IMG/VR virus record: IMGVR_UViG_3300025395_000007
From: a virus
DNA length: 64,000 nucleotides
Reading direction: 5' to 3' (one strand)
Both the position numbers and the translations under genes were made by a program. Positions 25,307 to 28,620 of the stretch are shown in pieces. Position 1 is the first letter of the stretch. Every line of letters begins with the position of its first letter. The notes under the pieces are model-generated. The model was not told the origin of the DNA and searched no databases. It saw only the letters and a list, made by a program, of their open reading frames with translations.

Positions 25307-25385
25307 CAGAGTGTGGGGAAGTCTGGTCGTTCCCGCCTCCCTTGGAAGGAGGAGCTCGGTGGTTCAAATCCACCCACTTTGACCA
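25307..25385 (+). tRNA. tRNA-Pro(TGG)
   Basis: CCTCC-CTTGGAA-GGAGG; C1-G72. Confidence 0.9.
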
Positions 25386-25851: not shown

Positions 25852-25879
25852 TTGACTTATTCTCTAAATAAGGTATACT
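25852..25879 (+). promoter_or_regulatory. Sigma70-type promoter for the second tRNA block
   Basis: TTGACT-N16-TATACT with AAATAAGG. Confidence 0.75.
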
Positions 25880-25975: not shown

Positions 25976-26051
25976 GCCCTTATAGCTCATTTGGTAGAGC
26001 AGTTGCTTTGTAAGCATCAGGTGGTCAGTTCGAATCCGACTGGGGGCACCA
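25976..26051 (+). tRNA. tRNA-Thr(TGT)
   Basis: TTTGTAA loop; G1-C72 and C2-G71. Confidence 0.92.
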
Positions 26052-26054
26052 TAC

Positions 26055-26145
26055 TGTAGCGAAAGGGTGGCGTCCACCGTTCAGACCTCTATGCCCTATG
26101 CTGGCCAGCATCTATCGGGAGTGATTAGAGAAAAGAGCCGCTACA
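26055..26145 (+). ncRNA. Multi-branch structured RNA candidate
   Basis: TGTAGCG/CGCTACA closing stem; GGTGG/CCACC and ATGCT/AGCAT hairpins. Confidence 0.4.
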
Positions 26146-26149
26146 TTGA

Positions 26150-26221
26150 GTCGCTGTCAGTACTGTGGGAAGTGCAGATGGTCAACACTAGGACACCGTT
26201 CGAATCGGACCAGCGACAACC
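26150..26221 (+). ncRNA. Degenerate tRNA-like element
   Basis: GTCGCTG/CAGCGAC acceptor stem, D-like arm, CCG-TTCGAAT-CGG; no regular anticodon arm or CCA. Confidence 0.45.
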
Positions 26222-26222
26222 T

Positions 26223-26285
26223 CGGGAGAGCTGTTTGGAAACACTCAGCAATATCTTGAAGGTTCAAACCCTTCTCTCCCGCCCA
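26223..26285 (+). ncRNA. 63-nt tRNA mimic lacking an anticodon arm
   Basis: CGGGAGA/TCTCCCG-CCCA; GCTG/CAGC arm; GAAGG-TTCAAAC-CCTTC T arm. Confidence 0.6.
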
Positions 26286-26290
26286 ATTTT

Positions 26291-26364
26291 GCTCTCTTAG
26301 TTAAATGGTATAACAGATGTTTAGTAATCATCTATTGGCAGTTCGATTCTGTCAGGGAGCACCA
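26291..26364 (+). tRNA. tRNA-Thr(AGT)
   Basis: GATGT-TTAGTAA-TCATC; Thr-type acceptor stem. Confidence 0.8.
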
Positions 26365-26452
26365 CTATGTACCACCCACGCCTCTCGACGTGTAAGATGC
26401 GCAACAGGGATCTGGAAATAACCAGTGACGACTCCAACGGGTCAACGGTCTC

Positions 26453-26460
26453 TATAAATA
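26453..26460 (+). promoter_or_regulatory. Late promoter TATAAATA
   Basis: Exact consensus before an AAGGAG RBS. Confidence 0.75.
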
Positions 26461-26477
26461 TCTCTAAGGAGATATCA

Positions 26478-26711
26478 ATGCCTGTACCCTGCGATTACCT
26501 CGCGGTGCAGTGGGATAATACTACATGGGTTCGATATGAAATGTGTCAGTTCGCTAAACAAAATGATGGCATTGACGGTGTTTATATCGGTGCACGATTA
26601 GAATTTAGACCTATAAAATCTCTAGATCAAGGCAAATGTCTTGATATGGATAAAAAAACACATGCTCGTTATAAGATCGGCGATAAAGAATGGGTGTGTT
26701 TAATTAATTGA
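26478..26711 (+). CDS. Small late hypothetical protein
   Basis: AAGGAG RBS and late promoter. Confidence 0.6.
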   Translation: MPVPCDYLAVQWDNTTWVRYEMCQFAKQNDGIDGVYIGARLEFRPIKSLDQGKCLDMDKKTHARYKIGDKEWVCLIN

Positions 26712-28123: not shown

Positions 28124-28197
28124 CGCGCGGTAGAGAAACAGTAACTCACGAGTCTCATACGCTCGAGGTCTAGGTGCAATTCCTAGCTGCGCAACCA
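28124..28197 (+). tRNA. Initiator-like tRNA-fMet(CAT)
   Basis: C1:A72 mismatch; CGAGT-CTCATAC-GCTCG. Confidence 0.8.
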
Positions 28198-28212
28198 ATC
28201 ATGGAGTATATT

Positions 28213-28620
28213 ATGAAAATTGGATTTACCTGTTCAGCGTTTGATCTTTTGCATCCTGGACATCTTGTTATGCTTGAAGAGTGCAAAAATAATTGCGATT
28301 ATCTGGTTGTTGGATTACATACTGATCCTACCATTGATCGGCCAGATACAAAACAACGACCTATTCAATCTACATTTGAACGATGGGTTCAACTAGATAG
28401 CTGTAGATGGGTTGATAAGATAATCCCATATGATACCGAACGAGATCTACAGAATCTTTTAGCTACTTTACATATTGATGTTCGTTTTCTTGGTGATGAA
28501 TATCGTGGTAAGATTTTTACTGGTGGAGAAATTTGCCAACATCGTGGTATTGAATTGTTTTATAATGCTCCACGATTACATAATTTTAGTTCCACAGAAA
28601 TGAGGAATAGACTAAAGTAA
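28213..28620 (+). CDS. Cytidylyltransferase (TagD-like)
   Basis: FDLLHPGH (HxGH), LVVGLHTD and SST motifs. Confidence 0.88.
   Translation: MKIGFTCSAFDLLHPGHLVMLEECKNNCDYLVVGLHTDPTIDRPDTKQRPIQSTFERWVQLDSCRWVDKIIPYDTERDLQNLLATLHIDVRFLGDEYRGKIFTGGEICQHRGIELFYNAPRLHNFSSTEMRNRLK

Follow-up and report, generated by a model that had tools for sequence, protein, structure and literature searches.

Conserved tRNA-like elements lacking a standard anticodon arm in the tRNA array of an uncultured T4-type phage

The window analysed here, a 64,000-nucleotide stretch of the IMG/VR record IMGVR_UViG_3300025395_000007, derives from a T4-type phage that encodes a gp46/SbcC-like recombination nuclease, a replicative helicase, a gp44 clamp loader, NrdA, and PhoH. 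Its gp46 is only 45–51% identical to that of the nearest cultured relatives, among which are Stenotrophomonas phage DLP6, the Melnitz phages, and cyanophages. An array of 24 tRNA genes occupies the plus strand between 23.5 and 30.1 kb (26 tRNA calls by ARAGORN in the whole window), and within it a 239-nt gap separates tRNA-Thr(UGU), which has an encoded CCA (25976–26051, plus strand; ARAGORN, 58.2 bits with the Rfam tRNA model), from tRNA-Thr(AGU) (26291–26364, plus strand; ARAGORN, 57.7 bits). The first-pass annotation had described three structured elements between these two threonine tRNAs, and both the sequence and its predicted folds place all three where it had put them; we refer to them as A (26055–26145), B (26150–26218), and C (26223–26285), all on the plus strand. 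ARAGORN made no tRNA call in the region 26052–26290, and no Rfam family matched A, B, or C at E ≤ 10, including tRNA (RF00005), tmRNA, the glutamine riboswitch, and Y-RNA. The three elements are spaced from one another and from their neighbours by 4–5 nt, the same spacing as that of the real tRNAs of the array, with A following tRNA-Thr(UGU) and the CCA of C lying 5 nt before tRNA-Thr(AGU).

A consensus scan placed a sigma-70-like promoter, TTGACT-16-TATACT (25852–25879, plus strand; 10 of 12 positions, a consensus match only), upstream of the run comprising tRNA-Asn, tRNA-Thr, A, B, C, and tRNA-Thr, and we found no terminator-like site between 25380 and 26800. Given this promoter-like site and the lack of a terminator-like site up to 26800, the run from tRNA-Asn to tRNA-Thr(AGU), including the three elements, plausibly forms one transcript. 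Among the protein-coding genes nearby, an ORF inside the tRNA array (28174–28620, plus strand) matches the cytidylyltransferase-like family PF01467 (E 2e-13), which is not the CCA-adding family; it may encode a nucleotidyltransferase that acts in the metabolism of NAD or a cofactor. Homologues of the ORF at 26367–26711 occur in non-syntenic contexts and give no synteny information on A, B, or C.

Element C is a compact RNA of 63 nt whose folding energy is well below that of shuffled sequences (z-score −3.4; 1 of 200 shuffles equally stable). In the single-sequence fold, a 7-bp acceptor stem (26223–26229 with 26275–26281, from C26223–G26281 to A26229–U26275) is followed by a hairpin (26230–26249) that stacks directly on it and consists of 4 bp, a bulge, 3 bp, and a GAAA tetraloop (26238–26241). 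An 8-nt linker (26250–26257) then leads into a T arm, GAAGG/UUCAAAC/CCUUC (26258–26274), and the acceptor strand ends in a discriminator C (26282) and an encoded CCA (26283–26285). All 12 pairs of the acceptor and T stems are perfect, and the T loop, UUCAAAC, is of the UUCRANY type. Acceptor/T-arm minihelices are substrates of RNase P and of the CCA-adding enzyme, and the prerequisites for this are present in C: a 12-bp acceptor/T helix, a U at position −1, and the encoded CCA. The anatomy first proposed for C thus holds for the acceptor stem, T arm, CCA, and 8-nt linker, but what had been called a D-like arm is the GAAA-capped hairpin, which is most like the anticodon arm of tRNA-Pro(UGG).

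Element B is a cloverleaf with a 7-bp acceptor stem (26150–26156 with 26211–26217), a 4-bp D stem (26160–26163 with 26172–26175), a short stem (26177–26180 with 26186–26189) closed by the pentaloop GUCAA (26181–26185), and a T arm (26194–26210) that in the window copy has three pairs and two mismatches. The discriminator A (26218) is followed by ACCU, so that the 3′ end reads A-ACCU rather than CCA. Taken as a single sequence, the fold of B is not significant (z −1.1). Both B and C have the acceptor stem and T arm of a canonical tRNA, and neither has a 5-bp anticodon stem with a 7-nt loop, B carrying a 5-nt loop and C the GAAA tetraloop.

Element A, at 91 nt, is not tRNA-like. Its 7-bp closing stem UGUAGCG/CGCUACA (26055–26061 with 26139–26145) bounds a three-way junction with a GGUGG-CGU-CCACC hairpin and a long bulged arm, it has no T arm, and its single-sequence fold has a z-score of −1.3. 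Homologues of A were found only in two related loci, L171 and L209; across the three sequences RNAalifold gave 32 pairs, of which 3 are compensatory and 1 is broken, and in all three the closing stem ends 4 nt before the 5′ end of B. We also considered a nested reading in which CGGGAG within A (26116–26121) pairs with the 3′ strand of C and B is an insert. This is unlikely, since in L025, L172, L191, and L575 C is present with no 5′ strand other than its local one; the retention of CGGGAG in L209, where C is absent, also counts against such pairing.

To place these elements in a wider context, we gathered related IMG/VR loci (numbered with the prefix L) by way of gp44 and PhoH neighbours and DNA patterns, amounting to 2.35 Mb of related phage DNA, and built covariance models for B (R1) and C (R2). 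The homologue search with custom covariance models that the first-pass annotation had suggested proved informative: R1 yielded 39 matches to B in the collected loci, 23 of them distinct, and R2 together with nhmmer yielded at least six variants of C. Beyond this collection, near and distant BLAST searches of the INPHARED cultured phages with the region, with the B element of L055, and with a tmRNA-plus-B locus returned no homologue. An exact 28-nt pattern of C had zero matches in IMG/VR, and among the matches listed from a relaxed viral scan, L575 was the sole new variant of C. We also searched bacterial genomes with a B pattern and metagenomes with a C pattern; among the 240 loci listed nhmmer detected neither element, a result from which we draw no inference outside phages. 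Our literature search found no description of the B and C families, and a large computational survey has reported unnamed tRNA-like candidates in IMG/VR phages (PMC10690425).

The alignment of the 23 distinct B variants shows strong covariation. Double changes occur at 14 of 20 pairs and 89% of cells pair, values that none of 500 shuffles reached and that alignments in slid registers fall far below. Compensatory changes are seen in the acceptor stem (6 of 7 pairs), in the D stem (3 of 4 pairs), and at the pair closing the pentaloop, which is C-G in 10 variants and G-C in another 10. In place of an anticodon arm the family has a four-pair stem, made up of a G.U pair, a conserved A.C mismatch, an invariant U-A pair, and the closing pair, capped by a 5-nt GNNAA loop that resembles the GNRA-like pentaloops found in boxB RNAs of phages. 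Conservation extends to the D loop, the T loop (UUCGAAU), and a mismatch at 50:64 of the T stem, and CCA is encoded in only a few members. A search of the window for antisense targets of the pentaloop region of B gave nothing above chance.

The family of C is smaller and its sequences are more constrained at the acceptor end. The variants come from the window, L171, L025, L172/L173, L191/L215, and L575, with one copy per contig, and in all six the acceptor stem CGGGAGA/UCUCCCG, the discriminator C, and the CCA are identical. Substitutions fall in loops, in the hairpin bulge, or in the linker, or else preserve pairing, with the single exception of a U.C at 13:22 in the window and L171; this position is otherwise AU, CG, UA, or UG, the T-stem pair 49:65 is A-U instead of G-C in L172, and pairs 9:26 and 11:24 switch to wobble in some variants. 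In the alignment of the six variants 98% of cells pair, and the covariation statistics are modest (9–40 of 500 shuffles match the observed values) because the family is small. An alternative fold with a 6-bp hairpin and a UGGA loop was set aside, since 86% of cells pair in that helix compared with 95% for the GAAA-loop fold, which also agrees with the single-sequence fold. The stretch formed by the 3′ strand of the hairpin and the linker reads AGCAAUAUCU in the window and L171, AGCUAAGCU in L575, and AGCUGCAGCU in L025, L172/L173, and L191/L215 (for example, L172:2840-2850); the last of these is a palindrome, for which self-pairing or dimerisation is possible.

The setting of C is also largely maintained. 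It lies between tRNA-Thr(UGU) and tRNA-Thr(AGU) in four variants (the window, L191, L172/L173, and L575), and five of the six variants are downstream of tRNA-Thr(UGU); in L171 it is followed by tRNA-Ile, and in L025 it is preceded by tRNA-Phe. B directly adjoins C in the window, L171, and L215, each time with a different variant of C. The tRNA-Thr(AGU) gene has A34, and it is kept in the same position downstream of C in L191, L172, L173, and L575. A recent deletion, shown by a full-length tRNA at this place in relatives, had been named earlier as an outcome that would refute the proposal, and here the relatives instead carry the same mini-tRNA, in four lineages between the same two threonine tRNA genes, with no full-length tRNA bearing the acceptor stem of C anywhere in the 2.35 Mb of relatives.

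Comparison with the surrounding tRNAs bears on how this conservation should be read. The window and L171 share 100% identity in B and 98% in C, compared with a mean of 74% for tRNAs of the same anticodon; for the window and L025, the values are 84% for C and a mean of 73% for such tRNAs. Between the window and L191, tRNA-Asn and tRNA-Thr(AGU) are 100% identical and tRNA-Thr(UGU) is 72% identical. Because tRNA arrays are mosaics, part of the identity of B and C between contigs may thus reflect exchange of array segments rather than constraint. Together with the covariation, the conservation of B and C as single-copy families bears out the earlier suggestion that their intact pairing reflects selection, and since both are conserved in related phages they are probably working tRNA mimics.

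The reading we prefer, somewhat above an even footing in our judgement, is that B and C are released as stable tRNA mimics that act on a protein partner, with A, B, and C being separate small RNA genes in a tRNA operon. On this reading the three elements and the tRNAs on either side of them would share a transcript, which would probably start from the promoter-like site (25852–25879), and would be excised by the tRNA-processing enzymes of the host: RNase P would generate the 5′ ends of B, C, and tRNA-Thr(AGU), and exonucleases would mature the 3′ ends, with the CCA of C already encoded. B and C both have a tRNA-derived scaffold that retains the acceptor/T-arm helix and the T loop, features that RNase P, the CCA-adding enzyme, EF-Tu, and numerous tRNA-binding proteins recognise. 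Where a tRNA has its decoding end, each carries a capped hairpin instead, closed by a GNNAA pentaloop in B and by a GAAA tetraloop in C, and both RNAs are therefore unable to read codons. As stable mimics, they would most likely occupy or titrate a tRNA-binding protein. That the acceptor stem, discriminator C, and CCA of element C are the same in all variants suggests a partner with sequence-specific recognition of the acceptor end. No candidate partner protein for B or C was found in the window. A more specific proposal, which we regard as speculative, is that B and C are dedicated trans-acting decoys of aquatic T4-like phages directed against a host factor that attacks or senses tRNA, with C soaking up an enzyme that modifies or cleaves 3′ ends, or a synthetase such as ProRS, and B acting together with the two-piece tmRNA of the phage.

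The association of B with tmRNA genes is a further feature of this family. Permuted (two-piece) tmRNA genes of the alpha type occur commonly in these related phages, being present in four of the five large contigs, and we mapped them at L001:2532-2919, L002:9041-9429, L190:12276-12659, L189:7134-7517, and L463–L466; none was found in the 64-kb window. In six variants B lies inside such a gene or 4–5 nt after it, as located with ARAGORN and Rfam except in L186, where the locus begins 162 nt upstream of B and is recognised by a tag-like reading frame rather than by a model match. In L190/L192/L178 and in L198/L211, B fills the intervening sequence of the tmRNA gene; in both L190 and L198 it starts 4 nt past the CCA of the acceptor piece, and in L190 its 3′ end lies immediately upstream of the coding piece. 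The start of B is 4–5 nt past the 3′ end of the permuted gene in L189, L181, and L184/L185. A recent tmRNA census termed a tRNA within an intervening sequence unique (PMC11915505), and the placement of B either within the intervening sequence of a permuted tmRNA gene or at its 3′ edge constitutes a new gene arrangement.

That B recurs just after RNAs needing a 3′ end is equally compatible with a role in processing, and this raises the first alternative to a trans-acting mimic, namely that B, and perhaps C, are only handles for RNase P and 3′ processing that define the ends of neighbours that are not tRNA-like (A and the tmRNA pieces), with no role after release. We consider this a minority possibility. 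The evidence for it is circumstantial and consists of the position of the 5′ end of B, which lies 4–5 nt downstream of A or of a coding or acceptor piece of tmRNA, together with five loci (L055, L183, L220, L222, and L188) in which 65–105 nt of unrelated sequence separates B from a tRNA. However, high-scoring B occurs exactly once in each of five large contigs rather than once per RNA that requires an end, and in four of these five contigs B is in the tRNA array and the tmRNA gene is elsewhere, with no B alongside. In many loci (L013, L217, and L200) B also lies directly between two ordinary tRNAs. Furthermore, a handle could be provided by any tRNA, but the D and T loops of B are invariant, and B also retains the GNNAA pentaloop and the 50:64 mismatch. 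For C, a role as a release signal is unnecessary, as its neighbours are real tRNAs or B and need no such help.

The second alternative follows from the ancestry of C. In a comparison with 696 distinct phage tRNAs, the composite of the acceptor stem and T arm of C is closest to tRNA-Pro(UGG), and the top four matches are all tRNA-Pro. The T arm of the tRNA-Pro(UGG) of L207 is identical to that of C, and its anticodon arm, CCUGU-UUUGGGA-ACAGG, resembles the hairpin of C, GCUGU-UUGGAA-ACAGC. In a profile alignment, positions 11–62 of C are colinear with positions 33–78 of tRNA-Pro, from the hairpin to the 3′ end (E 5e-5). By sequence the hairpin of C therefore aligns to the anticodon arm of tRNA-Pro(UGG), whereas covariation favours a GAAA tetraloop over a 7-nt loop. 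C is thus probably derived from a tRNA-Pro that lost its D arm and whose anticodon loop turned into a capped hairpin, a conclusion that concerns descent only and not present function. Because C is most like tRNA-Pro(UGG), the missing part is probably the D arm, and loss of the anticodon arm is less likely; the earlier label of a D-like arm with the anticodon arm missing probably had the descent reversed.

This ancestry keeps ProRS a candidate, and C could be a chargeable derivative that ProRS aminoacylates, serving as a non-decoding amino-acid donor or as a sponge or regulator of ProRS, which we judge improbable. In its favour are the resemblance to tRNA-Pro(UGG), the C1-G72 pair of C, which is a feature of bacterial tRNA-Pro, and the invariant acceptor end with its encoded CCA, which suits recognition by a synthetase. 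Conversely, the discriminator of C is C whereas bacterial tRNA-Pro has A73, and the D arm and elbow contacts are absent. In the favoured structure, the stem of the GAAA-capped hairpin takes up part of the UGG, and G35 and G36 are therefore not displayed as they would be in an anticodon loop. The window, moreover, already has an ordinary tRNA-Pro(UGG) (25307–25385; ARAGORN). Charging of C with alanine or histidine is unlikely, because C lacks both G3:U70 and G−1.

A third alternative is suggested by a tmRNA-like RNA of mycobacteriophage DS6A that consists of the tRNA-like domain (TLD) only and inhibits tmRNA, perhaps by titrating SmpB (PMC4131195). TLD-only tmRNAs of DS6A and of some organelles resemble the elements described here, in that they have no anticodon or coding part and the DS6A form is phage-encoded, about 65 nt long, and proposed to act by titration (PMC4131195, PMC11915505), and the DS6A RNA is the best functional precedent for a small phage-encoded tRNA-like inhibitor. 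We think it very unlikely, though, that C (or B) is itself a tag-less tmRNA of this kind that titrates SmpB and blocks host trans-translation. The frequency of permuted tmRNA genes in the clade, the physical nesting of six B variants in such genes, the existence of inhibitory forms in DS6A, and the suitable size and anticodon-less, tRNA-like character of C are all consistent with that role. C, however, has G3-C70, C1-G72, and C73 rather than G3:U70 and A73, and B has U-A or C-G at 3:70; neither matched any Rfam tmRNA model at E ≤ 10, including the tmRNA_permuted model for TLD-only forms. The central connectivity of C also differs, as its order of hairpin and then single strand is the reverse of the D loop and then helix 2 of a TLD, and minis of relatives that have both G3:U70 and ACCA (L082 and L153) suit the role better.

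Finally, we reject the possibility that B and C are functionless, decaying tRNA pseudogenes or products of a recent internal deletion, which the two T-stem mismatches and missing CCA of the window copy of B and the single-sequence folds of A and B (no better than shuffles) might suggest, because compensatory changes run throughout the stems of the 23 B variants, the same truncated C recurs in six variants with stem changes that are compensated or wobble bar one U.C, both elements are better conserved than real tRNAs, and the sequence variation among their homologues excludes a recently spread identical cassette.

If B and C are tRNA mimics, as we favour, their nearest counterparts in a studied phage would be the species 1 and 2 RNAs of T4 (rnaC and rnaD), which are likewise small stable RNAs encoded next to tRNA genes in a T4-type tRNA cluster. 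Shared features include the placement of (predicted) non-tRNA RNA genes between tRNA genes, tRNA-like ends, and a tandem arrangement of two or three such RNAs, both in T4 and here. In T4 rnaC, the T arm CCGGG-UUCGAAU-CCCGG precedes a 3′ strand that is acceptor-like and base-paired to the 5′ end of the RNA, but rnaC is 139 nt long, with a large insert replacing the D and anticodon arms and with U.U mismatches in the acceptor stem. By comparison, C is compact at 63 nt with perfect stems and an encoded CCA, and B retains a full D arm. When we searched positions 69000–75000 of T4 with nhmmer profiles of the three elements, A and B found no match, and C matched only the T arms of T4 tRNAs and, negligibly, rnaC (E 1.4). 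From these sequences, B and C appear analogous rather than homologous to T4 species 1 RNA.

Other RNAs with partial tRNA architecture share some of these properties. The mitochondrial tRNAs of nematodes and mites that lack the D arm or the T arm are about 55–65 nt long with an acceptor stem and one side arm, and C likewise seems by sequence to have lost its D arm; however, those tRNAs are organellar, have a 7-nt anticodon loop, and decode, whereas C has a GAAA tetraloop and B a 5-nt loop, and both belong to a phage of bacteria. YrlA (Y-RNA-like) and tRNA-Other RNAs are bacterial tRNA mimics, non-decoding RNAs with tRNA-like acceptor, D, and T elements that act through protein binding or regulation. 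In YrlA the tRNA-like module forms part of a larger RNA that has a Ro-binding stem; B and C, by contrast, are free-standing in tRNA arrays and match no Rfam family.

Mini-tRNAs are not confined to C in these phages. A strict scan (perfect 5-bp T stem, TTCRANY loop, 7-bp acceptor stem, 50–70 nt, and no overlap with an ARAGORN call) of the 2.35 Mb of related phage DNA returned 12 distinct minis, compared with 0–1 in reversed or shuffled sequence, and such elements are therefore far more frequent than chance. Two ARAGORN-negative elements, L082:9975-10044 (plus strand) and L153:12798-12867 (minus strand), extend about 70 nt to the end of the acceptor stem and have a 7-bp acceptor stem with G3:U70, a T arm, and ACCA but no normal anticodon arm; judged from these features, they are candidate alanine-chargeable TLD-only tmRNA-like RNAs. 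We also noted a 58-nt mini of the form CCUUUAA...UUAAAGG-ACCA at L177:65-119 (minus strand), and a family of 67–68 nt with the acceptor stem GCUCACA/UGUGAGC at L061:15972-16039 (plus strand) and L096:9144-9212 (minus strand). Non-canonical tRNA-like genes thus recur in this phage group. At L025:9206-9274 (plus strand), directly after tRNA-Asn, ARAGORN reports a "tRNA-???" with a two-letter anticodon (6-nt anticodon loop). Two further ARAGORN tRNAs, at L021:5984-6058 and L061:14426-14503, have the anticodons UUA (reading the stop codon UAA) and UCA (called as SeC; reading UGA), respectively, and may be suppressor tRNAs.

The tRNA clusters of phages are commonly interpreted as supplementing codon usage or as providing spares against anticodon nucleases. 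In the clade of uncultured T4-like phages described here, non-decoding tRNA bodies are also kept under selection, in a single copy per genome, which calls for a function of tRNA beyond translation. As compact RNAs of 63 and about 70 nt, C and B could be synthesised and used as bait for their partners. ARAGORN and Rfam miss both elements, so that covariance models for them are merited in annotation, and B and C may also inform on the T4 species 1 and 2 RNAs, which are still annotated merely as small stable RNAs.
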